In this document: positions 668 through 39,868 of the stretch, in pieces
Layout of the letters: the number at the start of each line of letters is the position of its first letter
Position numbering within the stretch: position 1 is the stretch's first letter
From: Leucoraja ocellata
Taxonomy: Eukaryota
Assembly: GCA_036785375.1 (NCBI GenBank)
Contig: JAWMAR010000471.1
Span: 868,001-932,000 of the forward strand
Direction of reading: 5' to 3'
Length of the DNA stretch: 64,000 bases
Translations under genes and position numbers: made by a program
The notes under the pieces: generated by a model
What the model was told of the DNA's origin: nothing
Databases searched by the model: none
Seen by the model: the letters and a program-made list of their open reading frames with translations, nothing else

Positions 668-734
668 CGGGTACTCCAATTGATGCCAGGATTGGGTAAT
701 AATAATATTCAACCGACATGTGCATCCGACCCAT
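668..734 (-). CDS. GPR139-like GPCR, exon 1 (exon 2 predicted just left of the window)
   Basis: ATG at 734 gives MGRMHMSVEYYYYPILASIGVP+G, then a GTATGT donor. Identical to exon 1 of the intact gene at 25933-25999. Confidence 0.85.
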
Positions 735-1702
735 TTCTCCTTCAAAGCGACCTCGGAAACTCAGTACACAGCTTACAGATGTTATAGTGGGAGGTTAAAC
801 CGCTTGACATTTATAACCCAAGAAGAAGATTCACGAGTTATTGTGATAACCTCCCTGTGGACATTCATTACGGATTTTGCTCCCGTGTGATGTTATACGA
901 CAACAATCACGAGGGTGGTCGTTCGCTGCACATGCACCAATTGAGCGCGTACAGAACTAACACACTGTAAAGTAGGATTGCGAAAAATATTTCGCAATTT
1001 AAATATGTTCCACGGAGGTTGCAGCTGCAGAAAGGTCCGACAGAAATATCAGTCAACAACACACGATCCAATGAGGAACTGCAGATGCTGGTTTAAACAG
1101 AAGGTAGACACAAAAAGCCGGACTAACTCAGCGGGACCGACAGCATCTTTGGAGAGAAATAAATGGTTGGCGGTTCGGGTCAAGACCTTCTTCACTGTGA
1201 AGAAGGGTCTCGAACCGAAACGTCACTCCAGCTTTTTCTGTCTATCGTTTGTTTATTCGGAAAACTTGAACTACAGTTCCCAGACACTGACCCAATCCCT
1301 TTAAATTTACCACTATCGATTTCTTCCCAGGTGCTTCCAGTGGGCCCTGTTGAAACATACATTAGAAAGGTTCGTGTGTGTGTTCTTATTTACATTCTTC
1401 ACGGGGAAAGATCAGGGGGAAACCTATGCCCTCTGGTCCTCGATGCACCTACTCTGGAAAGAGACTCGGCATCGTCCCGACCTTATCCTCTATAGTTTGT
1501 ACATCTCGATAAGAACACCCCTCATCCTGCTACACTTCGTGGATAGAGACCCAGCCTACAGAACCTCTCCTCATTACTCATACCCTCTCGTCCTGGAAAC
1601 ATGCTCGTATATCTTTTCTGAACCTTTTCAAGCTTGTCAATATCTTTCCTATAACATGGTGTCCAGAACTTAACAAAAATATTACTGTGCTGTCATTGAT
1701 TG

Positions 1703-2140
1703 TTGGTCTGCACAGTGCTTGAACTGAATTATAGGTCTGCACTGTGCTTGAACTGATTTATTGGTCAGTTCTACTGTACTTGAACAGAATTATTGGTCTG
1801 CACTGTGCTTGAAGTTAACTATTGGTCTGCACTGTGCTTGAACATAAGTGTTGGTCTGCACTGTGCTTGAACTGTATTGTTGATCTGCACTGTGCCGGAA
1901 CAGAATTGTAGGTCTGCACTGTGCTTGATCTGAATTGTTGTTGTACACTGTGCTTGAACTGAATTGTTGGTCTACAATGTGCTTGAACACAATTGTTTGT
2001 TTGCAATGTGCTTGAAATTAATTGTTGGTCTGCACTGTGCTTGAAATGAAATATTGGTCTGCACTGTACTTTAACTTGACTGTTGGTCTGCACAGTGCTG
2101 GAACTGATTTATTGGGGTGCACGGTGCTTGAACTGAAATG
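1703..2140. repeat. 29-bp minisatellite, about 15 units
   Basis: Consensus TGGTCTGCACTGTGCTTGAACTGAATTGT repeated in tandem. Confidence 0.95.
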
Positions 2141-3399
2141 TCTTCACTGACCGGTTGCTGGCTATTCAGAACAAATTGACCTCATGCCGTCGGCCAAGGC
2201 CCAGCCACGGGTTGTCCAAGTGGATTCACTACAGCGTTTTAATGTTTGCATAAATATTCGAGCATATGTAGTCTTTTGTATCTCAGCGATTTGCAAGACG
2301 TATTGTTTCATGTATTGTTGGTTTAGTTAACTTTCCCTGTGTGAAATATACTCGTTTTACCGTTTTAATCTTGTAATCACTGCAACAGATGCGAAGCATG
2401 TTTTGAGTGTGGCCCAAATCCAGCACGTGCACCCAAGTGGTCAAGCAGAACCTCCGAAATGAAGAAGGACGGATGGAGGAATTTGCATTTAGAGTCGGAT
2501 TATTCTGGAGATGGTCAGCAGGTCTCGGGGCATTGGCGGAATAAAATATAATCATTCATCTTTGATCTCCTCTCAGGGATTCGGATTTCCGTAAAAAACC
2601 GCAGTTTGACCGCGGGGAACAATGGAGGAAGAGACTGACTTTGGTGCCTTCCCACACAGTGGGAAACATTGATTCTGCTGTGTGGGGATGTTTTATGTCA
2701 AACCCTATAGTGTGTTGTGTCCCTTTTTTTATTGTATGGCTGTATGGGAATTTCATTTCACTGTGCCATCTGGCACATGTGATGAATAAATCTATCTTGT
2801 ATCTTGTATCTTGTTCAGTATCGCATCGATCTACTCTGCTCCATTGAAGCCTCGCGTCTCTCCACTATTTCATTCTATACTCCAGTGTCTCTTCTACGCT
2901 TTCCATTTTACGACGCGTCTCCTTGTAATGGCGTGAGAGGATCAGGGCGGAATATGTAAAGAGTCCGCTGCGAGTGTGTTAACAATTCTGGCATAACTTC
3001 TTTGTACTTCGCTTTTGTACTGTGGGCCCTTTAGCAGAAGTGATTTCAACAACCATTCGCCACTAGCCGCTTCATGACATACCATATCGGAAGACAAAAT
3101 ACCTGCTGACGGTATAAATTTTATTGGGGGTTCTGATCCTATGTCCGTTTATGTACGTACCCGTGCCTTACGATGCCTGCGTTAGATATGCATGTTCACA
3201 CACTTCTACCAAACTCCCATCTAAATCGTTGCTGTCAGACGTGCTCGTGCCATCCGAGGTACCGACGAAATACCATTCTACCTTTCTAAGCACCATTTGG
3301 GACGACGAGTGAGCTAACCGTCCGTTGTCAGCTCCCAATCGAATCTCGATTGTAACCATCTAGGCTATTTCAGTCGCATTTTGGAGACTTATTACAAGG

Positions 3400-3812
3400 C
3401 ACGGCTTGTACTCGCTAGAATTTAGAAGATTGAGGAGGGGTCTTATAAAAACGTACACAATTCTTAAGGGGTTGGACAGGCCAGATGCAGGAAGATTGTT
3501 CCCGATGTTGGGGAAGTCCAGAACCAGGGGTCACGCTTTACGGATAAGGGGGAAATATTTTAGGACCGAGGTGAGAAAAACATTTTTCACACAGAGAGTG
3601 GTGAATATCTGGAATTCTCTGCCACAAAGGTAGTTCATTGGCTATATTTAAGAGGGAGTTTGATGTGGCCCTTGTGGCTAAAGGGATCTGGGGGTATGGA
3701 GAGAAGGCAGGTACAGGATACGGAGTTGGATGATCAGCCACGATCACATTGAATGGCGGTGCAGGCTCGAAGGGCTGAATGGCCTACTCCTGCACCTATT
3801 TTCTATGTGTCT
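3400..3812 (+). mobile_element. CR1 LINE 3' fragment
   Basis: ORF2 C-terminus YSLEFRRLR...RTRGH...FFTQRVVNIWNSLP and a CR1 3' UTR ending cctattttctatg. Confidence 0.9.
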
Positions 3813-4528
3813 GAGTTATTCAACCTGATCAAAATATCTGGCTACAGTGATTTTCTTACCGTCGTTAAATTGTTAGGTTAGAATATGGAATTTCGAATGA
3901 AGCACAGATGGATGAGTGAATTATCCAGCATGATAATCATGAAATAAATGTATACCCTTTAATAAAACGTTAACACAAATACTTAGTACAGTAAAGAACC
4001 AACTGCCTCAAACTCTCCTTCGGTAAAACCATCGGGTTTTGTTTCATTGTCTGCTTTGATCAGTTTGTGCCTCAAGAAAACAGCCATCTCAGTGGATGCA
4101 GGAGTACATTCCGTTCTCAATAAGTAGTTAATAAACTCTGAGTTTGACAGCAAGACTCATGGTTAACTCAGAAGCATCTACATTCCTTTTGTTTGCATCG
4201 GCCTCCTTTCTGTTTCTCTAACGAGAATACATTAAGAGGTATTTATTCCCTCATTGCACGAACGTTTCCCTTTTGCGAAGCAGTGGGTCTCCTAAATGAA
4301 CAAGTTTGACTTCAATTTACTTTCAATGGAGAATTGTTTTTTTTTCCAGATAGCTCGCCGAAAGCATGCAGTAACTACCAGAAATAGACAGAATCAATAC
4401 ACCGAGTGAATTCTTCTCTGACTGCGTCTCCCACCCGCACGCAAGCTGCGAATTTCGCGGCCGCTGCCCAAGCCGCAATGAACGACATCCATCCACGAGA
4501 CAGCAGCTGTGCGCTTGAAATTCTCACC

Positions 4529-4567
4529 AGTTATTGTACGGGTATGTACACCATTCTCATCACTGTG
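4529..4567 (-). other. 23-bp-spacer recombination signal sequence (RSS) of V copy A
   Basis: Minus strand reads CACAGTG + atgagaatggtgtacatacccgt (23 nt) + ACAATAACT. Confidence 0.95.
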
Positions 4568-4869
4568 TTTCACTGCGCAGTAATAAACTGCCGTATCAGT
4601 CAGACGCAGTGCCGAGATTGTCAATCGATATTTTTTCTCCGACTGCTGGACTGAGTCCGAAAAACGATTTTGAGCGAATTCAGCCTTCAGCTCAGAGCCA
4701 CCGTCAGTGAATCGCCGGACCGCAAACTCGGGGTGCCCGCCAGGATACTGCCGATACCAGTATAAGAAATAATTATCCTTAGTATAGGTACATGTGAAAG
4801 TGGCGCTTTGACCCTCCGTATGTGCGAGCGGACCCTGCTCTTGGTTGACGGAATCTGAATGAACCAGAC
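4568..4869 (-). CDS. TCR alpha/delta V exon, copy A (open)
   Basis: After a tttccag acceptor: GLVHSDSVNQEQGPLAHTEGQSATFTCTYTKDNYFLYWYRQYPGGHPEFAVRRFTDGGSELKAEFAQNRFSDSVQQSEKKYRLTISALRLTDTAVYYCAVK. Has the canonical Cys, WYRQ and DTAVYYC, followed by a 23-RSS. Confidence 0.93.
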
Positions 4870-5159
4870 CTGGAAAACATTAGAGCGAGTGAAGAATTAA
4901 TGATACAAAGTAAACGCAAACGACTTTGGGACTCTTCAACACAATTAGGCAACAATAAGAGCACACTATTCCTGTCGAAGCAAATTGAGTTTGACCGTCT
5001 GGAAATCCTACATAAATATTCACTATTACCAAAACCAATGCCAATGTTGCATCTCATTCTACGCTTTATTGCCGCTCTCCACTGAAACATGTTTATATGT
5101 TTTGTAATATACTGTGTTGAGTTGCACTTTCATTGGTAAAATCGTTTATATAAACATAT

Positions 5160-5680
5160 ATAAACATATAACAATTACAGCACGGAAAACAGACCATCTC
5201 GGCCATAGCCTTCCATTCCTTTCCCATTCATATACCTATCCAATTTATTTTTAAATGATAAAATCGAACCTGCCTCCACCACTTCCACTGGAAGCTCATT
5301 CCACACAGCTACCACTGTCTGAGTACATAAGTTCCCCCTAATGTTACCCCTAAACTTATGTCCCTTAATTCTCAAGTCATGTCCTCTTGTTTGAATCGTC
5401 CCTACTCTCAATGGGAAACGTTTATCCACGTCAACTCTGTCTATCCCTCTCATCATTTTAAAGACCTCTATCAGGTCCCCCCTTAACCTTCTGCGCTCCA
5501 AGGAATAAAGGCCTAACTTGTTCAACCTTTCTCTGTAACTTAGTTGCTGAGACCCAGGCAACATTCTATTAACTCTCCTCTGTGCTCTCTCTATTTTTTT
5601 GACATCCTCCCTATAATTAGGCCACCAAAATTGTACACCATACTCCAGAATTGGCCTCACCAATTCCTTGTACAATTTAA
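5160..5680 (-). mobile_element. CR1 LINE 3' fragment in V intron
   Basis: ORF 5175..5708 LVRPILEYGVQFW...LYSLERRRLRGDLIEVFK; also present in copy B (30405-30932). Confidence 0.9.
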
Positions 5681-5740
5681 TCCTCTGTATCATTTGTATA
5701 CGTATCATTCATCTATTATGTGACAATTCTTCAGTGGTAC

Positions 5741-6266
5741 ATAGAAACATAGAAACATAGAAATTAGGTGCAGGAGTAGGCCATTCGGCCCTTCGAGCCT
5801 GCACCGCCATTTAATATGATCATGGCTGATCATCCAACTCAGTATCCCGTACCTGCCTTCTCTCCATACCCTCTGATCCCCTTGGCCACAAGGGCCACAT
5901 CTAACTCCCTCTTAAATATAGCCAATGAACTGGCCTCAACTACCCTCTGTGGCAGAGAGTTCCAGAGATTCACCACTCTGTGTGAAAAAAGTTCTCCTCA
6001 TCTCGGTTTTAAAGGATTCCCCCCTTATCCTTAAGCTGTGACCCCTTGTCCTGGACTTCCCCAACATCGGGAACAATTTTCCTGCATCTAGCCTGTCCAA
6101 CCCCTTAAGAATTTTGTAAGTTTCTATAAGATCCCATCTCAATCTCCTAAATTCTAGAGAGTATAAACCAAGTATATCCAGTCTTTCTTCATAAGACAGT
6201 CCTGACATCCCAGGAATCAGTCTGGTGAACCTTCTCTGCACTCCCTCTATGGCAATAATGTCCTTC
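5741..6266 (-). mobile_element. Young CR1 3' insertion present only in duplicate A
   Basis: (CATAGAAA)n tail and ORF2 C-terminus; absent from copy B; flanked by GTAC direct repeats. Confidence 0.92.
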
Positions 6267-6538
6267 GTGTTATGTACGACCGTGTTATGTGTCCTCTGTA
6301 GGAAGTGACTACTTGGCCTTTACTTTCCCGATGACATTCATCTCAAAATATGCTTTTCGCCAAACTATTTTACGAAACTATTAGATCCCATTTCTTAATG
6401 GGGTCGCGGACAACACACGATGTCATATATCAATAACAAGTGAATGACCAAACCGTTCGATGTTTAACTCCTTGGATCTTCATGCAGTCAGGCACTTGCT
6501 CTGGAAATGCAACTGTTTAGAGAAATCGCTCTTCTTAC

Positions 6539-6584
6539 CGACAAAGAATGTCACCCACGCCACCGCATGTAGCAGGAGATGCAT
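6539..6584 (-). CDS. Leader exon of TCR V copy A
   Basis: MHLLLHAVAWVTFFV+G then GTAAGA. Phase 1, joins the V exon in frame (G|GT). Confidence 0.85.
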
Positions 6585-6856
6585 GTTTGATGACCCTGGC
6601 TGCAAGAAATCTGTCTGTCTGAGATACCCGCAGAGCGTCCGTCTGACAGCCCTGCGAGCACTGGCTGACACTGGCATGGCGTCATTTCCTACAGCAAACA
6701 CATCTAAGAGAGCGAAAATGCGGGGTTCGGCGTCACTCTCATAAGTAACGAAACGTGTTTAATGTAGACAACTCAACCTGGATGTGTTGTTATATATGAA
6801 TATGAAAGAGAAGAGAGTTTGAATGCTATCCTACCGATAAATCAATGGGAATACTC

Positions 6857-7240
6857 ATAGAAACATAGAAAACATAGAAAATAGGTGCAGGAGGAGTCCA
6901 TTCGGCCCTTCGAGCCAGCACCGCCATTCATGGGTGATCATGACTGATCGTCCCCCCTATCAATAACCCGTGCCTGCCTTCTCCCCATATCCCTTGACTC
7001 CACTAGCCCTAGAGCTCTATCTCACTCTCGTTTAAATCCATCCAGTGATTAGGCCTCCACTGCCCTCTGTGGCGGGGAATTCCACAAATTCACAACTCTC
7101 TGGGTGAAACAATTTTTTTCTCACCTCAGCCTTATTGTCCTCCCCTTTATTCTAAGACGTTGCCCCCTGGTTCTGGAACTCGCCCAACACTGGGAACATC
7201 TTTCCTGCATCTAGCTTGTCCAGTCATTTTATAATATTAA
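6857..7240 (-). mobile_element. CR1 LINE 3' fragment
   Basis: catagaaacatagaaa tail plus CR1 3' UTR/ORF2 end; duplicated near 31560-31935. Confidence 0.85.
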
Positions 7241-8202
7241 ATTGTTCTCCTGGAGTGTCTCCAACGAGTCACTGTTGAATCTGCATTACCACCAGAGTCG
7301 AGTTGACCTCTACTCACTGCAGGCAGCTCCAGGTGACATTAGTGAGGACCTGAATAATCAATAACCGGGTAGACCCCCCCCCCCCCCCCCCCCTCGAGAG
7401 AGTACGGGCTTTGATTCTCGCCATCCCGCCACACAGTGGACAAACCAAATAAGTAGTGTTAAAATGAGCCTCACTATGGTTTTACTTGCAGTAAAAGAGG
7501 GAAGAATGACTGCTGTTTGTAAGAATGAGGTTTATCACGGTTTCCGCTTGAGTACAAGCATTTACGTTTAGTTTATTTTTAGTGATAGTGCGCGGAAACA
7601 CGCCCATCGGACCACCAAGCCCACGCCCACCAACAATCCCCGCAGCTAAACACTATCCTACGCACGCTTGGGACAATTTACATTCACTTTTTAAATGTTT
7701 TTATTATTCATATTTTATTAGAAGTAATGCACAGTAATATAAACCGTGGCATATAACATAATACATTTCGTGTACAACTTCTTGTTTTAAATTTAACAAT
7801 AGAGGAATAACCGCAGAAAGAGAAAGACAAAATAAAAAAGTAAGGAAATAGTGATGTGTAAACTCCTGGAGTACCACTCCAGGAGTTAACATTTGATAGT
7901 TTGTGGAAGGATTAGAGAGGAAGAACCCATAAAGATGATAAAAAAAACACAACAGAAAATAAAAGGGATATACCTACTTCATATCTTTCCAAACCCCTCG
8001 CCNNNNNNNNNNNNNNNNNNNNNNNNNNNNNNNNNNNNNNNNNNNNNNNNNNNNNNNNNNNNNNNNNNNNNNNNNNNNNNNNNNNNNNNNNNNNNNNNNN
8101 NNNNNNNNNNNNNNNNNNNNNNNNNNNNNNNNNNNNNNNNNNNNNNNNNNNNNNNNNNNNNNNNNNNNNNNNNNNNNNNNNNNNNNNNNNNNNNNNNNNN
8201 NN

Positions 8203-9990
8203 GGTCACTATAACCACCAGCGCGGTTCTCTCAGTGCAGTATCTGGTTCTCAGATTCTGAGTGGAATGGCCACAAAGCGATCAAATGTGAAAGCGACCGT
8301 GAGCCAAACAGAACAGGCAACGGCCGCGGGAGCGAGGAACATAATGGACCTGCACACAGTATTGTGTAGAGGAATGAGTGCCCCCAGTAAAGGTCAGCAA
8401 TCCGATGTAACATCACTTCGCAGACGATCACCGAGAGGTCCACAGTCGCCATGGCCACCAGGTACCGAGTGGTGCATTTGGAGAGACCACAATTTCTGCG
8501 CGACAGGATCACAATTGCCAGCAAGTTCACTGCGGGTGTAGAAAAGAGGAAACTGTAGTTACATGTAAGGGAAACGCGATGCTAATTTGGAGGCGGGGAT
8601 CAATTTAGGGCACGCTTTGCTTATTTGTTCGAAAACAACTGGCCCACATGCAAACCTGGGTGCTTGCCAAGGAGCTGTGCGGATTAATTAGCAGCGGTCT
8701 ACGCAGGTAGCGTGAGCTGTCTCCCAGCCACACTTGTTGCACCGCAGACTCTATATTGCAGCAACATGTCCGCATCAGACGACATCGTCCTGGACCTAAA
8801 CCCTTCCCGGGAACAGCCGGGCAACAAAGGCGTCGAAAGTAAGATTCCCATTTCTCCGCTGGAGAACTTGCCTTCAACACTACTCCCATCCAAACCCATT
8901 GATAAGCTCCACAGCCCAGCGAGCAGCACACCAGCTTGCGAATGGATACTCAACTTCCTAAAGAATAAACCGAGAGAATTAGTGGTAACACCCTTCCACA
9001 ATAATTCTCAACAACGGTGCCGCACAAAGCTTGTTGTGGGGCCATCTATGCCCAATAAAGAATAAATTGCACAGGGTTCTGGAAGACGCCGGGTCCATAT
9101 CACGAAATGGACTCCGCACTGTTGACTGCGTTTGCACTTCACAATCTTTGGAAACGGAGACATGTCTCACCCCGCTCATTCCTTCTACTTCCTGCTCCGT
9201 CGGGCAGAAAATGGAGAAGGCTTAAAGCTCGCTCCACCAGACTCCAGAACAGCTCTTCCCCATCTGTTGTCAGGCTTCTGAGCCGCTCTTCCATATGCCA
9301 GGGCATTGCCGTTTCACCTCTATCCCCTTGCGGACATTGGGCTTTGTGGAAGTGATACGCTGCAGTGCGCTCCCAAACTTGAACTACGCTCTGCACTCCG
9401 ATTTCCCCTCTTACACTACCTGTTACTGAGATTGAATTGTTTGTACTGTTATTTAATTTTATTTGATCTAATTTGGATTTCTTGCAAACCAAAGCTTTTT
9501 GCAGCTCCCGGAGAGACATGACAAACAATGCACCTAAAGCTAAATCTGAAGAGAATTAACCCCGTGCCAGATCCAAGGAACGACCAACGATCAAGTAGAT
9601 TAACAAAGGAATAGGTGACGTTTCGGGTCGAGACCCTTCTTCAGACTGATCAGTCTCGACCCGAAACGTCACCTATTCCTTCGCTTCCTAGATGCCGCTT
9701 CACCCGCTGTCTAATTCTCCAGCATTTTTGTCTAGATTCGATTTCTCCAGCAACTGCAGTAATTTCTTAAACAAACATTTTCTAGTTAATACCGCCCTAA
9801 CCTGAAGAATGCAGTCTAGCATTCCCGTGTTTCGCACACTATTTACACTTTACCTTTAACATTGTTTTTATCAACATATCTCACGTCTCAGTCCCTCTTA
9901 CTGCTTTCCCCTTCACCTACCGGGTACTCCGATTGCTGCCAGAATTGGATAATAGTAATATTCAACTTCCAAGTGCCACTTCCAACTCAT
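8203..9990 (-). pseudogene. GPR139-like GPCR, frameshifted and truncated by a gap
   Basis: Exon 1 9921-9990 MSWKWHLEVEYYYYPILAAIGVP+G|GTAGGT. Exon 2 from 8529: NLLAIVILSRRNCGLSKC...ACSVWLTVAFTFDRFVAI. Two 1-nt deletions (near 8360 and 8265); the rest falls in the N-gap, so the lesions could be assembly errors. Confidence 0.8.
8700..9300 (+). mobile_element. Degenerate Rex/Babar-like LINE in GPCR intron
   Basis: Remnant RT motifs (..CEWILNFL.., KARSTRLQNS) with many indels. Confidence 0.55.
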
Positions 9991-12407
9991 TATTCCTTCA
10001 AGCCGTCCGCAGTTATGCAGTGCAAAACTTAGAGAAGTCAAAGTGGAGAAGTCAAACAGCGCTATATTTATATTCCTGGAAAAAAGTGAAGTACTGCGTG
10101 CGTTCACCTCCCCGCGGACATTTATTTTGGACCGATGAACAAATAGTTTGCTCCCATGTGATGCAAAGCGATCAAACTCATTATGCGACCGCTCCCTACT
10201 CAGGCACCAGCTCAGTACCAACAGAACAAAGGAACTGTAAAATACGACTGCACATTCTATTTTTAAATGTTAACGCGTGGCACACAGATGCAGCAAAATT
10301 CATGTCATGTAGTATTTGTCTACACATGCTGCGATGCAACACAGTATTTCATTTGTGGCATTTGTAATGCATTTTCCAGACACCGTTCCATTCATTTAAC
10401 ATGTACCCATTAATAATTTGATCTTTCAAAAGGAATGATTATTATTTTTGGGCAGGGTCTAAATGATGTAAATCACAGGGAACCTTCCAGAAGACATCGT
10501 ATACATTCAGATATAACAGCAGCATTAATGCCTTTCAACTGTTGGCACCGCATGAAGTAAAGGATAAGCGAATATAATGTGTAACGTGACAACTCACTGG
10601 AAATAAACAGCGGCTAGAAATATTCTTGATCAACAGGTTATCTTTAAAGGAATGTGTTAATTCATAAAACATAGAGGTGACCAGCTTTTGATATTACTCC
10701 AGATATTAGGGCGAAATCTTCTCAATGCATTGATCCGTTGGAGATATCAAGAATGTTGATGTGCAAGATGATAGAACCGATTGAATCCGCTAAGGAGACT
10801 CTGACCGGCGGTACATGTTTTGGGATAGATAATTTTGAAGAAAGTCTTGACCTAAAAACAAGTGTCATGTTTGCTGCACTCAAACTAAGAAATTCAAAGG
10901 AAAAGAAATCTTCACAAAGCAGTACAGCACAGGAACAGGGATATTAATTTTCGAAATAATTAATTAAGGATCCATTTAAACTAGGGAGTATGCAACTCTC
11001 CTCACACTAATATTGGACAGAGCGAATTGTGAGATGGACTGGATGATGCAGAATCTTTTTCCCTCTGCAGCGAACAAAACAGGAGGAATTATGGAGAATT
11101 AAAATATGACAAGGTGATCAATTGAAGTATTATATTTTGTTCCTAAGGTATAGGTCTCTACAATAAGTAAATATTTAAAGGGCACGCAGCGCCAACTTCC
11201 CCTCACGGGAGGGGCAGGTATATTGAACCAACTCTCACTGTAAGTGGTAGTTGCATGTTACACAGCACAGAAACAGGGCCCTTTCTCCATCTTGTTCATG
11301 AACTATTTGCTTACAACCAATGCGAGTAAATTTGAATGTGGATGGTAAGATTTTTTTCCCTCAGCCAGCTGGAGGTGTGGGCTTATTTCACGGCAGGAGT
11401 CGCACGCAGTTGGATATAAGTGGAGTTTAACCACCTGGTCTGGGACGTTGACGAGGCCGCACGTGCAATGTTGTTCAGATCGCAATATGTTAGCGATGAT
11501 ACAATTAAACTGGGGGTGGCAGCGTATTAATGACAAAGTTTTTGCCTGGACTGGTGTGGTGGTTCAATCCTGAGAGAGACTGTATAGGTCAGGATATTTT
11601 ATTTCTCTGGACCGAACGATGTTGTCATTTGACATTTCAAGTTTTGAACGTTTTCACGAGAGACAATATAATCAAGACAGTCGTCGAAATGCCCAATTGT
11701 GTTCCAAATGACGAGGATGAGAGATTTAGTAGAGATGTAGACTCGGATGTTATGTGCAGAAATTTGCGCCTTGCCCCGGCGGAAGGTGATTTGTTGTTCT
11801 TAGATCTTGGCATAAAGTCCTGGTGTCATCCGGCAAGCGCGACCAAACCAGAAGCGTGAGCCGCGCGGAGGTCGAGTCAGTGACACGACGTCGAGGCGGC
11901 TGCGGACCGGCAGCCGCGCGGAATTTTTGAACACGGTCAGTTTTTCGGAGCCCCGCGCGATGTCGGGACCAGCTCCGCACAACTCCATACGCCTCCGGCG
12001 ATCGAAGTGGGACCGGCCATGCGAGGTCGTACGGCTCAAGCGACCACGTTAGGTCGCGCTTGCCGCTTGGAGTCGCATGCTCGTGGGACAGGTCCTTTAC
12101 ACTGCATACACACTTTTTCGCACAGGAAGTGACCGGTATATGGAACGTGCAGCCAGAGGGAGTAGTTGTGGCAGGCACTATGACAGGTACTTTATTGAAA
12201 ACACATGTGGACAGGTATATGGATACGGAAGGCGTATGATACAGACGCGGGAAAATGACACTAGGGGCATCGTGGTCGGCACGAACAAGGGCCCAAAACG
12301 CTGTTACCGTAGGTATCACTCTATGGCTCTCTAACGATGTATCAAGTGCAAATTCATGGCTTGAAATATTAATATTAGTGGATATATCATGTCAGCTGAT
12401 GCAATAA

Positions 12408-26965: not shown

Positions 26966-27376
26966 GTTGGTCTGCACTGTGCTTGAACTGAATTATAGGT
27001 CTGCACTGTGCTTGAACTGATTTATTGGTCAGTTCTACTGTACTTGAACAGAATTATTGGTCTACACTGTGCTTGAAGTTAACTATTGGTCTGCACTGTG
27101 CTTGAACTGTATTGTTGATCTGCACTGTGCCGGAAGAGAATTGTAGGTCTGCACTGTGCTTGATCTGAATTGTTGTTGTACACTGTGCTTGAACTGAATT
27201 GTTGGTCTACAATGTGCTTGAACACAATTGTTTGTTTGCAATGTGCTTGAAATTAATTGTTGGTCTGCACTGTGCTTGAAATGAAATATTGGTCTGCACT
27301 GCACTTGAACTTCATTGTTGGTCTGCACAGTGCTGGAACTGATTTGTTGGGCTGCACGGTGCTTGAACTGAAATGT
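26966..27376. repeat. 29-bp minisatellite, copy B (about 14 units)
   Basis: Same unit as 1703-2140; lacks the ...aacataagtgt unit. Confidence 0.93.
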
Positions 27377-29780
27377 CTTCACTGACCGGTTGCTGGCTAT
27401 TCAGCACAAATTGACCTCATGCAGTCGGCCAAGGCCCAGCCACGGTTTGTCCTAGTGGATTCACTACAGCGTTTTAATGTTTGCATAAATATTCCAGCAT
27501 ATGTAGTCTTTTGTATCTCAGCGATTTGCAAGACATTGTTTCATGTATTGTTGGTTTAGTTAACTTTCCCTGTGTGAAATATACTCGTTTTACCGTTGTA
27601 ATGTTGTAATCACTGCAACAGATGCGAAGCATGTTTTGAGTGTGGCCCAAATCCAGCACGTGCACCCAAGTGGTCAAGCAGAACCTCCGAAATGAAGAAG
27701 GGCGGATGGAGGAATTTGCATTTAGAGTCGGATTATTCTGGAGATTGTCAGCAGGTCTCGGGGCATTGGCGGAATAAAATGTACCCATTCGTCTTTGATC
27801 TCCTCTCAGGGATTCGGATTTCGGTAAAAAAAAACGCAGTTTGACCGCGGGGAACAATGGAGGAAGAGACTGATTTTGGTGCCTTCCCACACAGTGGGAA
27901 ACATTGATTCTGCTGTGTGGGGATGTTTTATGTCAAACCCTATAGTGTGTTGTGTCCCTTTTTTTATTGTATGGCTGTATGGGGATTTCATTTCACTGTG
28001 CCATCTGGCACATGTGATGAATAAATCTATCTTGTATCTTGTATCTTGTTCAGTATCGCATCGATCTACTCTGCTCCATTGAAGCCTCACGACTCTCCAC
28101 TATTTCATTCTATACTTCAGTGTCTCTTCTACGCTTTCCATTTTACGACACGTCTCCATGTAATGGCGTGAGAGGATCAGGGCGGAATACGTAAAGAGTT
28201 CCCTGCGAGTGTGTTAACAATTCTGGCATAACTTCTTTGTACTTCGCTTTTGTACTGTGGGCCCTTTAGCAGAAGTGATTTCAACAACCATTCGCCACTA
28301 GCCGCTTAATGACATACCATAGCGGAAGACAAATACTTGCTGACGGTATAAATTTTATTGGGGGTTCTCATCCTATGTCCGTTTATGTACCTACCCGTGC
28401 CTTACGATGCCTGCGCTAGATATGCATGTTCACACACTTCTACCAAACTCCCATCTAAGTCGTTGCTGTCAGACGTGTGCTCGTGCCATCCGAGCTACCG
28501 ACGAAATACCATTCTGCCTTTCTAAGCACCATTTGGGACGACGAGTGAGCTAACCGTCCGTTGTCAGCTCCCAATCGAATCTCGATTGTAACCATCTAGG
28601 CTATTTCAGTCGCATTTTGGAGACTTACAATTGTTATTACAAGACACGGCTTGTACTCGCTAGAATTTAGAAGATTGACGGGGGATCATGTAGAAATGTA
28701 CACCATTCTTAAGGGGTTGGACAGGCTAGATGCAGGAAGATTTTTCCTGATGTTGGGGAAGTCCAGAACAAGGGGTCACGGTTTACGGATAAGGGGGAAA
28801 TTTTTTAGGACCGAGGTGAGAAAACCATTTTTCACACAGAGAGTGGTGAATATCTGGAATTCTCTGCCACAGAAGGTAGTTCATTGGCTATACTTAAGAG
28901 GGAGTTTGATATGGCCCTTGTTGCTAAAGGGATCTGGGGGTATGGAGAGAAGGCAGGTACAGGATACTGAGTTGGATAATCAGGCATGATCATATTGAAT
29001 GGCGGTGCAGGCTCGAAGGGCCGAATGGCCTACTCTTGCACCTATTTTCTATGTGTCTGAGTTATTCAACCTGATCAAAATATGTGGCTACAGTGATTTT
29101 CTTACCGTCGTTAAATTGTTAGGTTAGAATATGGAATTTCGAATGAAGCACAAATGGATGAGTGAATTATCCAGCATGATAATCATGAAATAAATGTATA
29201 CTCTTTAATAAAACGTTAACACAAATACTTAGTACAGTAAAGAACCAACTGCCTCAAACTCTCCTTCGGTAAAACCATCGTTTTTTTTTCATTGTCTGCT
29301 TTGATCAGTTTGTGTCTCAAGAAAACAGCCACCCCAGTGGATGCAGGAGTACATTCTATTCTCAATAAGTAGTTAATAAACGCTGAGTTTGACAGCAAGA
29401 CCAAGAACATGGGTAACTCAGAAGCATCTACATTCCTTTTGTTTGCATCGGCCTCCTTTCTGTTTCTCTAGCGAGAATACTTTAAAAAGTATTTATCCCC
29501 CCATTGCACGAATGTTTCCCTTTTGCGAAGAAGTGGGTCTCCTAAATGAACAAGTTTGACTTCAATTTACTTTCAATGGAGAAGTGTTTTTTGTTTTCCA
29601 GATAGCTCGCCGAAAGCATGCAGTAACTACCAGAAATAGACAGAGTCAATACACCGTGTGAATTCTTCTCTGACTGCGTCTCCCACCCGCACGCAAGCTG
29701 CGAATTTCGCGGCCGCTGCCCAAGCCGCAATGAACGACATCCATCCACGAGACAGCAGCTGTGCGCTTGAAATTCTCACC

Positions 29781-29819
29781 AGTTATTGTACGGGTATGTA
29801 CACCATTCTCATCACTGTG
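29781..29819 (-). other. 23-RSS of V copy B
   Basis: CACAGTG-23 nt-ACAATAACT, identical to copy A. Confidence 0.95.
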
Positions 29820-30121
29820 ATCCACTGCGCAGTAATAAACTGCCGTATCAGTCAGACGCAGTGCCGAGATTGTCAATCGATATTTTTTCTCCGACTTTTG
29901 GACTGAGTCCGAAAAACGATTTTGAGCGAATTCAGCCTTCAGCTCAGAGCCACCGTTAATGTCTCGCCGGACCGCAAACTCGGGCTGCCCGCCAGGATAC
30001 TGCCGATACCAGTATAAGTAATAATTATCCTTAGTATAGGTACATGTGAAAGTGGCGCTTTGACCCTCCGTATGTGCGAGCGGACCCTGCTCTTGGTTGA
30101 CGGAATCTGAATGTACCAGAC
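29820..30121 (-). CDS. TCR alpha/delta V exon, copy B (open)
   Basis: GLVHSDSVNQEQGPLAHTEGQSATFTCTYTKDNYYLYWYRQYPGGQPEFAVRRDINGGSELKAEFAQNRFSDSVQKSEKKYRLTISALRLTDTAVYYCAVD followed by the RSS. Confidence 0.93.
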
Positions 30122-31241
30122 CTGGAACACATTAGAGCGAGTTAAGAATTAATGATACAAAGTAAACGCAAACGACTTTGGGGCTCTTCAACAAAATTAG
30201 GCAACAATAAGAGCACACTATTCCTGTCGAAGCAAATTGAGTTTGACCGTCTGGAAATCCTACATAAATATTCACTATTACCAAAACCAATGCCAATGTT
30301 GCATCTCATTCTACGCTTTAATGCCGCTCTCCACTGAAACATGTTTATAGGTTTTGTAATATACTGTGTTGAGTTCCACTTTCATTTGTAAAATCGTTTT
30401 TTATAACCATATATAACCATATAACAATTACAGCACGGAAAACAGGCCATTTCGGCCATAGCCCTCCATTCCTTTCCCATCCATATACCTATCCAATTTA
30501 TTTTTAAATGATAAAATCGAACCTGCCTCCACCAATTCCACTGGAAGCTCATTCCACACAGCTACCACTCTCTGAGCAATTAAGTTCCCCCTCATGTTAC
30601 CCCTAAACTTATGTCCCTTAATTCTCAAGTCATGTCCTCTTGTTTGAATCTTCCCTACTCTCAATGGGAAACGTTTATCCACGTCAACTCTGTCTATCCC
30701 TCTCATCATTTTACAGACCTCTATCAGGTCCCCCCTTAACCTTCTGCGCTCCAACGAATAAAGGCCTAACTTGTTCAACCTTTCTCTGTAACTTAGTTGC
30801 TGAAACCCAGGCAACATTCTATTAACTCTCCTCTGTGCTCTCTCTATTTTGTTGACATCCTTCCTATAATTAGGCGACCAAAATTGTACACCATACTCCA
30901 GAATTGGCCTCACCAATGCCTTGTACAATTTAATCCTCTGTATCATTTGTATACGCATCATTCATCTATTATGTGACAATTCTTCAGTGGTACGACCGTG
31001 TTATGTGTCCTCTGTAGGAAGTGACTACTTGGCCTTTACTATCCCGATGACATTTATCTCAAAATATGCTTTTCGCCAAACTATTAGTTCCCATTTCTTA
31101 ATGGGGTCGCGGACAACACACGATGTCATATTTCAATAACAAGTGAATGACCAAACCGTTCGATGTTTAACTCCTTGGATCTTCATGCAGTCAGGCACTT
31201 GCTCTGGAAATGCAACTGTTTAGAGAAATCGCTCTTCTTAC

Positions 31242-31287
31242 CGACAAAGAATGTCACCCACGCCACCGCATGTGGCAGGAGATGCAT
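31242..31287 (-). CDS. Leader exon of TCR V copy B
   Basis: MHLLPHAVAWVTFFV+G|GTAAGA. Confidence 0.85.
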
Positions 31288-31379
31288 GTTTGATGACCCT
31301 GGCTGCAAGAAATCTGTCTGTCTGTGATACCCGCAGAGCGTCCGTCTGACAGCCCTGCGAGCACTGGCTGACACTGGCA

Positions 31380-31393
31380 TGACGTCACTTCCT
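31380..31393 (-). promoter_or_regulatory. ETS-CRE composite element in V promoter
   Basis: AGGAAGTGACGTCA about 95 bp upstream of the leader ATG; CRE elements are typical of TCR V promoters. Confidence 0.65.
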
Positions 31394-33639
31394 ACAGCAA
31401 ACCCATCTAAGAGAGCGAACAATGCGGGGTTCGGCGTCACTCTCATAAGTAACGAAACGTGTTTAATGTAGACAACTCAACCTGGATGTGTTGTTATATA
31501 TGAATATGAAAGAGAAGACAGTTTGAATGCTATCCTACCGATAAATCAATGGGAATACTCATAGAAACATAGAACACATAGAAAATAGGTGCAGGAGGCC
31601 ATTCGGCCCTTCGAGCCACCACCCCCATTCATTGTGATCATGGCTGATCGTCCCCTATCAATAACCCGTGCCTGCCTTCTCCCCATATCCCTTGACTCCA
31701 CTAGCCCCTAGAGCTCTATCTCACTCTCGCTTAAATCCATCCAGTGATTAGGCCTCCACTGCCCTCTGTGGCAGGGAATTCCACAAATTCACAACTCTCT
31801 GGGTGAAAAAAGTTTTTTTCTCACCTCAGCCTTAAATGTCCTCCCCTTTATTCTAAGACGGTGCCCCCTGGTTCTGGACTCGCCCAACATTGGGAACATG
31901 TTTCCTGCATCTAACTTGCCCAGTCCTTTTATAATATTAAATAGTTCTCCTGGAGTGTCTCCTACGAGTCACTGTTGAATCTGCATTACCACCAGAGTCG
32001 AGTTGACCTCTACTCACTGCAGGTCAGCTCCAGGTGACATTAGTGAGGACCTGAACAATCAATAACCGGGTAGACCCCCCCCCCCCCCCCCCCCCCCCGA
32101 GAGAGTACGGGCTTTGATTCTCGCCATCCCGCCACACAGTGGACAAACCAAATAAGTAGTGTTAAAATGAGCCTCAATATGGTTTTACTTGCAGTAAAAT
32201 AGGGAAGAATGACTCCTGTTTATAAGAATGAGGGTTTATCACGGTTTCCGCTTGAGTACAAGCATTTAGTTTTTGTTTAGTTTCGTGATAGTGCGCGGAA
32301 ACACGCCCATCGGATCACCGAGCCCACGCCCACCAACAATCCCCGCAGCTAAACACTATCCTACGCACGCTTGGAACAATTTACAATTACTTTTTAAATG
32401 TTTTTATTATTCATATTTTTATTAGAAGCAATGCACAGTAATATAAACCGTGGCATATAACATAATACATTTCGTGTACAACTTCTTGTTTTAAATTAAA
32501 CAATAGAGAAATAACCGCAGAAAGAGAAAGAGAAAATACAAAAGTAAGGAAAATAGTGATGTGTAAACTCCTGGAGTGCCACTACAGGAGTTAACAGTTG
32601 ATAGTTTGTGGAAGGATAGAGAGGAAGAACCCATAAAGATGTTAAAAAAAACAGAACAGAAAAGAAAAGGGATATACCTACTTCATATCTTTCCAAACCC
32701 ATCGCCCAGTTGTGAAACGGTTAGTTTCCAGAGTTATGTTGCGCCATATTATACTTGTAAGAAATCGATGAAAGGAGACCATATCTTTAAGAATTGCTCT
32801 GATTTTCCATTTACATTACAAGCAAACCAAGCAACGTGCAGACCTGTACGCCTTTGGAGTGTGGGGGGGAAATCGAAGATCTCGTGGAAAACCCCACGCA
32901 GCTCACGGGGTCCGAACGGACGGCACACGTGGTAAAGTTTCTCAGTGAGAGATTCGGAGGCATTTCGTGGGAACAGTAGACACGTTATAAGCTTCAACCC
33001 TTGTCAAGTGATTTTTTTCCAGCGTTCTGTTCACATATCTTTATTACTCAAGATTACTCTGCTGAATAGTGGATGCTGGCGTACGTCACCCGGGAGGAAA
33101 ACTGCCGGAGGGCTGCGTCACTCTCAGACACCTCTTCCTACTTGGGCCATGATCGCACAGACAAGCACCAGGCCTTAAACCCCCTTTTCACGGTGCGACT
33201 TGACGCAAGAGGTAACCAGAGTTTGACATCGTGGGAACCTCGTGCGTTAACAATACGGCATTCGTGGACTACCGTGGCGCTAACGGCATGTAATCGTGTA
33301 CCTTGGGTACTCGGGAGAAAATTCAAACATGTTTGAATTTGTCCAAGAGTGTCTTGTGCACTTGTGGTTAAGCATTGCAACATTTTATGAACGAAGTGTC
33401 CCGTGCGATATCGGTAGTAACTCTTGCGGTCACCGTGGGAACTCCTGCCAACGGTGAACCCGGAAGTTGGATAGAGTGAATCCAGCCAGTTTGCTATTTA
33501 CATACAAATCTAATAAAACTAGCTAAGCGTTTCATTAATGTCAGTGTGTCTCTTTTTGTCTGAAAGATGGGGGTGTCTTCATTTACTGGCGGTGGGTGTC
33601 TGTCACTGAAACAGGCAGGTAAGATTTCGCATCCACCTT

Positions 33640-34306: not shown

Positions 34307-34590
34307 CAGTCCTGGTCAGTCCTTTGAAGATAGACACCAGTTGCTTGGAGCAACTCAGCGGGACAGGCAGCATCTCTGGAGAGAAGGAACGTAAATGCTG
34401 CCTGGCCCGCGGAGTTCCTCCATTCATGCCTGTGTGAGAGAGAGGGAGGGGGAGAGAGAGAGAGAGAGAGAGAGGCAGTCCTGGTCAGTCCTTTGAAGAT
34501 AGACACCAGTTGCTTGGAGCAACTCAGCGGGACAGGCAGCATCTCTGGAGAGAAGGAACGGGTGGCGTTTCGGGCTGAAAGTTTCTTCAG
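33640..34590. repeat. Mosaic of tandem and inverted short-repeat fragments with (GA)n and poly-C/G tracts
   Basis: The block gaggcagtcctggtcag...gagaaggaacg occurs three times, and the gcatgaatgga/gctgcctgtcccg blocks occur in both orientations. Confidence 0.8.
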
Positions 34591-35399
34591 ACTGAAAGTT
34601 TCACCTCTCAGTAGATCATAAAATAACACAATAATCACGGTCAATGTGAGATACAGTCTTTATTCATATTTGACAAAATAAAAAGACGACTTCTTGCACA
34701 TATTGAGAGAAGGTGCATCACACCAAACAACATTTGTCTAAAAAAACAGATTATTCTTCAGCTCATTAAAGAGCTCGGGTGAAAAAAACGAATAGAGTGT
34801 GTGACAACAAAGTAACATCATTTGTGCCACGTGATTAACTACACTACAGTCCACGATGTTCATTCGGGAAAGATCGGGAGACGGACAAGTCACTCGCACA
34901 AATGACAGAATTGCCGAGTACCGTGGGAACTCTTTACTCTACCCCCGTTATATCGTGTGATATCGTGCTAGACCACGACCACTCAACTCTGGCTACATCT
35001 TGCGTCAAGTCGCCCCGTGTAAACTAGCCATTAATCTCACACACCATTTCTAATTTCAGCACTTCTGGCGGTCTGCATTTCGCAGCCTCCAAACTTATCG
35101 TTCCCAGCCCCGCAGTGCCCGATTTTGCCTGCTCACCAAAGTCCACTACCACAACTGTCCATTGTTTCCGCCTGCTCCTGTCCCAGGAGAATGATTTCCA
35201 CGTACTTCGACTCCATCCTATCACCCCTCGTACAGTCTCTCGCGCCCTTTGTCCAAGATACCTCACATGGCTTTCGTCTCTTTCCGAGCCCCCACGTTAT
35301 GATGGACGTTCAGTCACTCTACACGTCCACTTCCCACCAAGAATGCCTCAGTTTCTCCCTCCACCGCAGAACCATCAGATTTCCTTCTAGCTAGATGCA

Positions 35400-36300
35400 G
35401 GAAAAATATCCCCCATATTGGGCGAGTCCAGAACCAGGGGCCACAGCCTTAGAATAAAGGGGATGTCATTTAAGACTGAGGTGAGCAAAAACCTTTTCAG
35501 CTAGAGAGTTGTGAATTGATGGGATTCCCTGCCACAGAGGGCAGTGGAGGCCAAATCACTTGATGGATTTAAGAGATGGTTAGATCGAGCTCAATCGGCT
35601 AGTGGAGTCAAGGGATATGGGAAGAAGGCAGGCCGGGTTATTGATACGGGATGATCAGCCAAGATCACAATGAATGGCGGTGCTGGCTCCAAGGGCAGAA
35701 TGGCCTCTACCTGCACATCTAACTCCCTCTTAAATATAGCCAATGAACTGGCCTCAACTATATTCTGTGGCAGAGAATTCCAGAGATTCACCACTCCCTG
35801 TGTAAAACATGTTTTTCTCATCTCCGTCTTAAAAGATTTCCCCTTTATCCTTAATCTGTGACCATTTTTTCTGGACTTCCCCAACATCGGGAACAATCTT
35901 CCTGCATTTAGCCTGTCCAACCCATAAGAATGTTGTAAGTTTCTATAAGATCCCCCTCAATCTTCTAAATTCTTGCGGGTACAAGCCGAGTCTATCCAGT
36001 CTTTCTTCATATGAAAGTCCTGACATCCTGAAAATCAGTCTGGTGAACATTCTCTGTACTCCCTCTATGGCAAGAATGTCCTACCTCAGATCAATAGACT
36101 AAAACTGTACGCAATACTCCACGTGTTGTCTCACCAAGACCCTGTACAATTACAGTAGAACCTCCCTGCTCCTATACTCAAATATTTTGCTATGAACGCT
36201 AACATGTCATTCGCTTTCTTCACTGCATGCCTACTTCCAATGACTGTGTACCATGACACCCAGGTCTCGTTGCAACTCCTCTTTTCCTAATCGGCCACCT
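35400..36300. mobile_element. Two CR1 3' fragments joined tail-to-tail
   Basis: Plus fragment 35390-35715 abuts minus fragment 35715-36300 (ORF 35591..35920). Confidence 0.8.
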
Positions 36301-36414
36301 TCACTATACCGTTCCGCGCTCCTCAGAGACGGTACCTCCATAACTCCCTGGTTAACTCATCACTTCCCACACAACCCCCCCCCCCCCCCCCCCCCCCCAC
36401 CTCCCTCCTCAGGT

Positions 36415-36830
36415 AACGTCCCCTCCAAGCGCAGAAGATGCAACTCCTGCCGCTGTACCTCCTTCCTCGACTCTGTCCAAGGACCGCGAAAGTCCCTTCA
36501 GGTTAGGCAGAGGTTCACTTGCAGCTCTTGCAAGCTAATTTACGGTATACGTTGTTTTAGATTAGGACTCTTATACATCGGCGAGACCAAACGCACTGTG
36601 GACGTTAGTTTTGCGGAACACATTCGCTTAGCCTGCCTGAACGTAAACATTCTCCCCGTTGCGGGACACTTTAATTCTCCTTCCCATTCCTACACAGATC
36701 TTTCTGTCCTCGGTCTCCTCCATTGTCATAGTGAGGCTACACGCAAATTGGAGGAAAAGCATCTCATAGTTCGCTTGGGCAGCTCACAGCCCCGTGATAT
36801 GACTATTGATTTCTCTCCCGTCAGGTAGCC
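36415..36830 (+). mobile_element. Penelope-like GIY-YIG endonuclease fragment
   Basis: RCNSC...LIYGIRC...LYIGETKRT...FAEH...VAGHFNSPSH...RKLEEKHLIVRLGS. Confidence 0.85.
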
Positions 36831-37643
36831 CCGGCATTCCCTCTCAACACCACCCCCCACCCAAGCCACATTTGCTTTTCATTTTCTCGCTACAAACATC
36901 TAACAATGGCCTGTTTCCTATATAATTGTAACTTTTTTGCATATATTTAATTCATTGTTTTTTATCTCTCCACATCACCGGCTATATCTCTCGTTCCCCT
37001 TATCCCTAACCAGTCTGAAGAAGGGTATCGAGCCGAAACGTCACCCATTCCTTCTCTCCATCGATGTTGCCTGTCACGCTGAGTTACTCCAGCTTTTTGA
37101 GCCAAACCTCGGTTTAAACCAGCATAATACGGACAGGTAGCAGTGATCCCTACGTAAACGTCGGTGATGGCTTACGGCCCCGGCCGCTGGATGGCGCATT
37201 TCCCCCTCAATACCAAAAAGTTACATGAAGCATTAAAATAAAACTCTATGTTAAAGGATAAAGCAAATATGTGCAGGATTAGGCAATTCGGCCCTTCGAG
37301 CCAACACCGCCATTAAATAAGATCATGGCTGATCATCCAAAATCAGGACCCTGTTCCAGCTTTCCCCCCACATTTTGATTCCGATTGCGATTCCGACTAG
37401 AGTGTCCATAGAGCTTCATCTAGCCGATGCGCTATTTATGATTACACGCACGACTTCATATTTAACAATTACAAGAGTGCAAATTTCAAATCCAAACTAG
37501 CACGTGATCAGTGTCATTAGGAATACGGTTAATTGTTCCAGCCACTTTCAGTTGCGCTATAATTAGCCCGAGTCTGAGATGATTCGGCAACAGTTGCAAC
37601 CACCGTCATACAGAGCACGGACGCCATTTGAGCACGCAACAGA

Positions 37644-39868
37644 ATGCGTTGGCATGCGATACGGAACGTAGAATCGTGGTATTATCCAATTCTTGCTGCA
37701 ATTGGGGTTTTGGGTAAGTCTTCGTGAGCACATTTCGTCGAATGAACAACATGCCATACCATGCGCGTTTGTATTGTGTGTGTAGAAGAGAAATGCAAAA
37801 GGGAAAGAAAATGTTGGCGATGGGAGAGCAAGATATATCACCGCTGATGGAAATGAGTTAAGTTTCGACGTCAATTATTGTTCCTCAGTGTTAAGGTAAT
37901 ATCACCTTCAATTTCTTTCCAACGGCAAAATTATTCTCGCATTGCATGAGTCGACGACATGTGTTGGAATGAACGGCAGATGCTGATGTCAACCGAAGAG
38001 ATACAAAATGCTGGAGTACATCAGTGGGGCAGGCAGGATCTCTGGATCACCATCTTCTGAAGAAGGGTCTCGACCCGAAACTTCACCCATTCCTTCTTTC
38101 CGGAATGCTGCCTGTCCCACTGAGTTACATTAACATTTGTCATTCGTCTACCTACGCATTTGGAAGTATTTTATTTCTTCTTTGCATTTATTTATTCTTT
38201 ACGCAGCCAATGACTAGAAATAGTACACCCAAGAAGAGGGAGTTGTAGATTTGTTGAGCTGTATAATAATATTCGTAAACGATATCGAAATGGCTTGTAT
38301 AAATTGCAGCACAAATCGGACTGGGAGAGGCAAGAATATCTCTGCAAACATTTTTCTCAACTGAACCCCCACCGTGTCACTGCTTGAATTGGTGCCTCGC
38401 AGTTTAAATCCAGCGAATGGCAGACAACTAAATGATGCGCATTTCATTTAACGTTGCTGGCTTTCTGTGGACTCAGCACTTGATTAAGCCTCAATAGACA
38501 ATAAACAATGGACAATATGTGCAGGAATAAGCCGTTCGGCCATTCAATGTGATCACGGCTGATCATGCTCAATCAGCACCCCGTTCCTGCCTTCTCACCA
38601 TATCCCTTGACTCCGCTATCTGTAAGAGCCCTATCTAGTTCTCTCTTGAAGATATCCTGAGAACCGGACTCCACCGTCCTCTGAGGCAGAGAATTCCATA
38701 GGCCTCCTGCCCTAATGCATCTCCAAAATTTAATCTAGCTGTCTTGAGTCACCGAGTGGACTCGGCACAAGGACGCTAATTTGAGGAAGGACATTTTTGC
38801 TATTGAGGGAGTGCAGCGTAGGTTTACAAAGCTATTTCCTGGGATGTCGGGACTGTCATATGGAGAGAATGGAGCAGCTGGGCTTGTACACTGCATATTT
38901 ATTGTTATATACAGTAAATAATATCATATACATATATTGTTTTTGTTCTGTTTTAGTCAACCTAGTGGCGCTTGTGATACTGTCCCGAGGAAAGTGCGGT
39001 CTATCCAAATGCATCACTCGTTACCTGGTGGCCATGACAGCAGCGGATCTCTCCGTTATAATCTGCAATGTGATATTGTATCGGGTGGCCGAAATGTATT
39101 GGCCGGACACTTTCTTACTCAACCTTTATGTCTGTAGATTCGTGCACTTCCTGGCTCATGCGGCATTAGACTGCTCAGTTTGGTTCACGGTCGCCTTTAC
39201 TTTCGACCGGTTTGTGGCCATTTCCACGCAGCATCTAAAATCAAAATATTGCACCAAGAGGTCCGCGACTGTGATTATAGTCACAATGAGCGCAGGCTTC
39301 TGCTTAAAGAACATTCCCTGGGCCTTCTCCTATGTTCCATACTACAGAACAAATGTGCCAGATTGGGGTTGCCTGATAGCGTCACAATTCTATCTCTGGA
39401 CACCATGGATTGCATTTTCTTGGACTGAACAGTTGTGAACTCCAGTTATCCCACTTCTGCTTGATTTTGCTGTTCAACGCGCTTACTATCAGACGCATTT
39501 TACGGGCGAGTCGGATCCGCAGGATGCTCCATGATCCAAGCAACGGAGAGAAAGGAAAAGACGAGGAGATGAGTAACCGTAGGCGGTCCATCGTTTTACT
39601 AATTTCAATCTCCATGAGTTTTATTCTGCTCTGGGCCGCAACTCTCGTGCATTTTGTTATCTTTCGCGTTATCGCGGCTTTCAAACGTAGGGGTGACGGT
39701 AATCCAATTTCGATTTTGCAACACACTGCGATCATGCTTCAGCTGCTGAGTTCCTGCACGAACAATGCTATTTACACCGTGACGCAAAGGAAGTTCAGAC
39801 TAGAGCTATTCCGAGCCCTGAACTACCCCTTGCTGACATTGCTGAAACGGCAGATAACGGCAGATTAA
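37644..39868 (+). pseudogene. GPR139-like GPCR pseudogene; exons 37644-37713 and 38957-39868
   Basis: Exon 1 MRWHAIRNVESWYYPILAAIGVL+G|GTAAGT; acceptor ttttag|TC AAC CTA. In-frame TGA at 39436-39438 and a +1 frameshift near 39454 in TM5; the C-terminal half is in ORF 39410..39868. Confidence 0.88.

Follow-up and report, generated by a model that had tools for sequence, protein, structure and literature searches.

The receptor loci

A 64,000-nucleotide stretch of the Leucoraja ocellata genome (GenBank assembly GCA_036785375.1, contig JAWMAR010000471.1, positions 868,001 to 932,000 of the forward strand; hereafter the window) harbours five loci of a G-protein-coupled receptor (GPCR) family, G1 to G5, lying among T-cell receptor (TCR) V genes. 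They were found by tblastn and motif scans of the whole window, at the coordinates already given in a preliminary description made from the letters alone. G4 (24312..25999, minus strand) is an intact two-exon gene encoding 325 amino acids, with exon 1 at 25999-25933, a 710-nt phase-1 intron and exon 2 at 25222-24312. It matches the Pfam profile 7tm_1 (E 9e-17), and the model of its exon-2 protein predicts seven long helices (pLDDT 80). The family is of class A (rhodopsin-like), having the 7tm_1 profile, the seven helices, D2.50, a DRY-like motif, W6.48, NxxxY, Cys3.25 and a Cys in the second extracellular loop (ECL2).

The three other copies in which exon 2 is visible are all disrupted, as the preliminary description had recognised. 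G2 (8203..9990, minus strand; exon 1 at 9990-9921, exon 2 from 8529) carries two 1-nt deletions, at about 8365 and 8266, and its 3' part is lost in a gap of 200 N. G3 (20401..21315, minus strand) consists of exon 2 only, with a 1-nt insertion near 21167, and no exon 1 was detectable for it in the window. G5 (37644..39868; exon 1 at 37644-37713, exon 2 at 38957-39868) has an in-frame stop at 39436-39438 and a 1-nt insertion near 39454; it lies on the plus strand, opposite to the other loci. Protein identity among G2 to G5 is 56-74%. At G1 (668..734, minus strand) exon 1 is identical to that of G4, and its intron (1-667) crosses the window edge, so that exon 2 lies just beyond. The earlier label of "exon 1 only" was an effect of this edge and does not reflect gene loss; G1 as an exon-1 relic was rejected on the same ground.

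The shared anatomy that had been described largely holds. The N-terminus is short, with 9-11 residues before the motif YYPILAxIGV(P/L); DRF is present in transmembrane segment (TM) 3 of all four exon-2 copies; and Pro is missing at both 6.50 and 7.50 in the three copies with visible TM6 and TM7. Other parts of that description needed narrowing. A phase-1 GT-AG intron follows the motif wherever exon 1 is visible, at four loci, and an exon 1 common to all five was discarded, G3 having none. The strings LLWVTT (TM6) and NTCTNTLIY (TM7) are exact in G4, and in G4 alone. Among G3, G4 and G5 the most variable loops are indeed ECL3 (29%) and ECL2 (36%), but ECL1 (49%), which had been grouped with them, is about as variable as the intracellular loops ICL2 and ICL3 (50 and 51%).

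Upstream of exon 1, G2 and G1/G4 share about 250 nt at 67% conservation, a candidate common promoter (662-981, 9915-10251 and 25927-26246). A minisatellite with units of about 29-30 nt lies upstream of G1 (1684-2149) and G4 (26947-27384), with a different copy number at each.

Family size and genomic spread

Of 3497 candidates from a search with exon 2 of G4, 2029 clusters pass E<=1e-10. Taxa are known for the best 120 of these 2029, and the counts per species given here rest on those 120, which comprise 119 named chondrichthyan proteins and one unnamed, nearly all labelled 'probable GPR139'. Heptranchias has at least 48 members on at least 23 records, 9 of them of 10 Mb or more, and Heterodontus at least 34 on at least 14 records (12 of 10 Mb or more). 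Since members lie on many records in each species, the family is genome-wide. The enrichment or confinement at TCR loci that had been proposed is largely contradicted by this scatter over many chromosomes, and the family is not restricted to the TCR locus. The closest named relatives of the window GPCRs come from skates, at 79%, and open-frame relatives occur in other records for both G4 (79%) and G2 (82%). The earlier view of a birth-and-death family agrees well with the many paralogs, pseudogenes and tandem clusters observed.

The genes are already machine-annotated in RefSeq; it is the expansion itself that is an overlooked lead. No paper on a chondrichthyan expansion was found in the literature searched, whose coverage leaves out most subscription journals.

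Relationship to GPR139 and other receptors

When the family profile was compared with PDB, human GPR139 was the best match, at 69.9 bits against 51.3 for the next. GPR139 is also the best PDB match for two vertebrate clades, here called X and Y, and for amphioxus sequences. An exhaustive profile search gave 138 representatives at E<=1e-30, with names looked up for 15 of the 150 listed and five more already named. Scored with the family profile, amphibian clade Y reaches 196-217 bits and clade X 186-200 (six sequences scored from the two together), amphioxus 121-145 and invertebrate-type outgroups 110-115, all of them above GPR139. Clade X is found in coelacanth, teleosts, amphibians and reptiles, and three shark species each contribute a single gene to it. 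A careful 31-row tree that leaves out G2, and is like the other trees built without any GPR139 or GPR142 sequence, joined the family to clade Y with support of 100/99 and kept clade X separate; the grouping of the family with Y, X and a further clade, Z, reached 91/93, under the support bar. In these comparisons the sister of the family is the conserved amphibian gene of clade Y, beside what is probably the GPR210 orphan lineage.

Clade X (rows P0235, P0303, P0343 and P0381) is a conserved orphan GPCR, present from sharks to snakes and labelled GPR139 or GPR142. Two of its gene models are named as TMEM183A isoforms, which suggests a conserved neighbour gene. By UniProt-Ensembl numbering, clade X (coelacanth XP_005988539, UniRef H3B118) is probably GPR210B. 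At 2.50, clade Y (rows P0224 and P0385-P0390) carries N in place of D, and it retains P6.50. Rinne et al. 2019 described the orphans GPR210A and GPR210B, adjoining GPR139 and GPR142, in coelacanth, gar and fishes (PMC6504862). They are low-copy and pocket-conserved, unlike the expanded family, and sharks do not appear in the available passages of that paper. Sharks keep a clade X gene of their own; clade Y, and not X, is the sister of the expanded family.

We give very little credence to the reading that the window GPCRs are true GPR139/142 paralogs sensing tryptophan or phenylalanine. The lead of GPR139 in the PDB ranking favours it, as do the RefSeq label, the absence of a TM7 proline in GPR139 as well and the two-exon gene, a structure that GPR139 likewise has (PMC7318219, in part). 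According to the same source, the agonist site of GPR139 comprises E3x32, F3x33, H5x43, W6x48, R6x51 and N7x38. The corresponding residues of G4 are S, A, E, W, T and V, so that W6.48 alone is kept, and the five other positions vary widely across the family. GPR139 has P6.50, absent from the family, and lacks Cys 3.25, which 116 of 120 members possess; GPR139 and GPR142 are single-copy and conserved, whereas the family is massively multi-copy. In a single-sequence search (phmmer), G4 matches GPR139 with 28 bits (E 1e-5), no better than TRHR, which falls short of identity of the orthologue kind; zebrafish and human GPR139 are 70% identical (PMC7318219). The scores of clades X and Y, amphioxus and the outgroups, higher than that of GPR139, point the same way. 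What stands of the earlier "GPR139-like" designation is that GPR139 is the nearest relative of solved structure by profile; the relationship is distant, the genes are not GPR139/142 orthologues, and the site for aromatic amino acids is not kept.

By features and predicted structure, the next-nearest Atlas clusters are invertebrate FMRFamide-receptor-like and Srw-domain GPCRs, which branch outside the group of chordate sequences and have longer N-termini in three outgroup rows. The odorant receptor (OR), TAAR, V1R/ORA, FPR and MRGPR families combine a short N-terminus, tandem clusters and many pseudogenes with a variable pocket and a fixed signalling face. The window family resembles them in its short N-terminus, tandem clusters, pseudogenes and variable pocket, but it has an intron and is not homologous to them at the family level, sharing Pfam 7tm_1 only.

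Predicted-pocket variability and selection

At 27 positions assigned to the ligand pocket, placed by simple offsets from generic numbering, the family (n=120) shows a mean identity of 0.42, clade X (n=111) of 0.78 and clade Y (n=9) of 0.98. At the other 129 TM positions the values are 0.67, 0.68 and 0.81, respectively. The contrast is significant by permutation (p=5e-5), also inside the extracellular half (p=0.003), and identity in the intracellular half of the family is 0.78. The clade Y pocket is 98% conserved over frogs, salamanders and caecilians. Of the 120 members, 119-120 retain D2.50, R3.50, P5.50, N5.58, F6.44, W6.48, N7.49 and Y7.53. The ratio of non-synonymous to synonymous rates (dN/dS) in the TM segments of the window paralogs is 0.17-0.23, over dS of 0.5-1.3, and these segments are under purifying selection. 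A variable pocket combined with a conserved intracellular face fits a diversified sensor repertoire, as far as the generic numbering places the positions, and is consistent with the chemoreceptor-like character suggested earlier.

The T-cell receptor setting and segmental duplication

The setting is, as previously proposed, that of a chondrichthyan TCR alpha/delta region, with alpha/delta-type V exons bearing 23-bp-spacer recombination signal sequences (23-RSS) and two NAR-TCR clusters. Six V exons were found in the window. V1 (4529..4879, minus strand) has its 23-RSS heptamer at 4567, and V2 (29781..30131, minus strand) has that of its own 23-RSS at 29819. No assembly gap interrupts the sequence from G4 through V2 to G5, which makes the interleaving of GPCR and V genes real. 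The leader-like hydrophobic frames of V1 (about 4950-5020) and V2 (about 30200-30270), on the minus strand, have no in-frame ATG, the nearest being one base off; both leaders may therefore be defective or unusual.

The two NAR-TCR clusters are oppositely oriented, and in each a supporting V accompanies a VNAR-like V and J signals. Cluster 1 (44162..49560, minus strand) comprises a NAR V (RSS 49265), D/J signals (48869 and 48474), a J and a supporting V-delta (RSS 44200) with a Cys in complementarity-determining region (CDR) 1, which we take to be a mark of supporting V-delta genes; VNAR domains are most of its top single-domain matches. Cluster 2 (56772..60012, plus strand) comprises a NAR V with a degraded RSS, a J signal at 57494 and a supporting V-delta (RSS 59974). 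This second NAR V (57054-57140, plus strand) is possibly non-functional, while the J signal and supporting V look normal. The arrangement is that of NAR-TCR clusters as defined in passages of PMC6795676 and PMC5931798, in which a VNAR-like V and its D/J signals precede a supporting V-delta.

The unit of duplication had been described as one GPCR plus one V gene. One such pair exists: positions 1..8002, containing a GPCR intron, exon 1 and V1, are a segmental duplicate of 25266-32706, with identities of 96.4% over 5762 nt and 95.0% over 1739 nt. The unit is at least 8 kb long and possibly a haplotig; no further V-like piece or V remnant was found beside G2, G3 or G5, so that the description does not extend to them. 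Nor do the receptors form a single local lineage. G3, G4 and G5 as one clade are rejected (approximately unbiased test, p-AU 9e-73, G2 left out), and G3 and G4 each cluster with genes from other records; the three are thus old paralogs.

It is quite possible, if short of an even chance, that the G1+V1 segment is a second haplotype scaffolded in tandem, in which case the sole co-duplication of GPCR and V would be an assembly artefact. The copy stops exactly at the 200-N gap, its first 946 nt are the same as in the G4 copy, and a single G4-type intron contig is seen in a relative. The alignment nevertheless contains 150 substitutions in 5706 nt (2.6%) and 12 gap openings over 5.7 kb, and between V1 and V2 there are 12 differences in 312 nt, concentrated in CDR2. 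The identical stretch (1-946 against 25266-26211, with intron, exon 1 and promoter) shows 0 differences, where the rest of the duplicate differs by 1-5%; it reflects either gene conversion or assembly collapse.

The window copies fall into one subclade of 35 of 103 rows in a quick tree (SH-aLRT 100), in which the placement of G2 is unreliable. In a second tree, from which G2 was left out, the subclade has 20 of 23 rows and support of 100/100. Among the sampled rows it lies on a single chromosome-scale record in each shark or ray species, except Amblyraja, where it lies on two. In Hypanus, 171 accession numbers separate a member from IRF9, a gene near TRA/TRD in human, and in Pristis 246 separate one from IgW. 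In Stegostoma, by contrast, a member and IRF9 are about 39,000 accessions apart, and in Hypanus C1q too falls within 389 accession numbers, which makes proximity of this kind a coarse hint. A V-gene homolog search aimed at the TCR chromosomes of annotated species gave 2 matches of 3 candidates, both from Xenopus, and linkage is hinted at by accession proximity alone. From such weak, mixed and indirect indications, the subclade may long have resided in the antigen-receptor complex.

It had been suggested that these are lymphocyte receptors tied to the TCR locus, which V(D)J recombination would open, delete or move, so that T-cell clones would differ in GPCR content. We consider this very unlikely. 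The gap-free position of V2, the single GPCR+V duplicate, the common subclade of all four window copies and the accession distances in Hypanus and Pristis are in its favour, and are set against the many chromosomes occupied by the family, the Stegostoma and C1q distances and the absence of TCR D-J-C from the 64-kb window. ORs are likewise interspersed with distal TRAV genes in mammals. The elasmobranch antigen-receptor complex described by Flajnik et al. 2025 extends over about 9 Mb in the great white shark, and V genes of either orientation lie there among IgM clusters (PMC12227049, in part). TCR alpha/delta V and NAR-TCR V genes run both ways there, as in the window; in a complex of megabases so arranged, a place between V genes is not special. 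The terms 'GPR' and 'coupled receptor' have no match in the main text and both supplements of that study.

A putative chemical-sensor repertoire

Starting directly from the gene anatomy, the size and spread of the family, its position in the tree, the variability of the pocket positions and the purifying selection on TM segments, we propose with moderate confidence that the five loci belong to a class A GPCR family that has multiplied in the genomes of sharks and rays and is likely a chemical-sensor repertoire, with a likely passive place among TCR V genes. The expansion would have arisen from an orphan lineage separate from GPR139. Each receptor is predicted to bind a different ligand through its variable pocket, probably a peptide or a small molecule, and all would signal through the conserved intracellular face, presumably by G-protein coupling. 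Expression would be sparse and cell-restricted. The local cluster may have been carried along by the segmental duplications that multiply V genes, and its position among them is probably passive.

Several observations weigh against this proposal. Three of the four visible copies are broken. The pocket test sets paralogs against orthologues, with generic, offset-placed positions and a teleost-heavy clade X. dN/dS never exceeds 1, the extracellular loops of G3, G4 and G5 reaching 0.36-0.66 with dS near saturation. Foldseek against PDB returned many class A receptors with near-equal, weak and undiscriminating scores, and GPR139 is not among the best 50 rows. The possible tie of the subclade to the antigen-receptor complex in batoids, from the accession hints, would be an old linkage for a purely passive model. 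RNA was checked in three runs of a relative (tissue not stated), of which 1-5% each was read: 0 reads were attributable to the G4 orthologue in these portions, 16, 13 and 5 reads match no more than a conserved patch of 42 nt, and in two runs their loose ends belong to another paralog with its intron still attached.

In DNA of the relative, the depth summed from 29 contigs reaches about 185,000 at the conserved patch with which exon 2 begins (25172-25214), as opposed to about 18 in the intron and 3' flank. This hints at one or more paralogs amplified thousands-fold, although a depth sum is not a copy number. The partial RNA reads derive from such an amplified, unspliced paralog. Among the matches listed (8 of about 200 pieces), no indel was seen in the coding part of these contigs.

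The depth of the patch, the broken copies and the 53% of window sequence with a self-match would all be expected if the amplification were mostly neutral, driven by repeats and segmental duplication, with most copies, those of the window included, decaying around a few functional genes. This we regard as unlikely, given the low TM dN/dS maintained over considerable dS, the signalling motifs kept in nearly all members, the open-frame relatives of G4 and G2 elsewhere and the concentration of variability at pocket positions.

Sharks reportedly have very small class A olfactory repertoires, the catshark families counting 2-8 genes each (PMC11979771, in part), in contrast with the at least 48 and at least 34 distinct members found here in two sharks. 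We would suggest tentatively, at somewhat less than even odds, that cartilaginous fishes have an unrecognised large repertoire of sensor GPCRs under the 'probable GPR139' label, likely hundreds of genes per genome. It would dwarf the known odorant-receptor families, having grown from an orphan kept as one conserved gene in amphibians, with one old subclade in the antigen-receptor complex, and could represent either a fifth family of chemoreceptors or an innate immune array for ligand sensing. Expression in nose, skin, gill or leukocytes would revise the picture of chemical sensing in these animals. Because Xenopus and salamanders carry the conserved sister gene, the ancestral ligand and its tissue can be tested in laboratory animals. 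The shared database label also misleads work on GPR139 orthology. It is the family itself, and not its link to the TCR, that is the interesting part.

Other features of the window

A fragment of a CR1-like long interspersed nuclear element (21329..22480, minus strand) abuts the splice acceptor of G3. A GC-rich, coding-like fragment at 18460-18600 is probably a piece of a retroelement.

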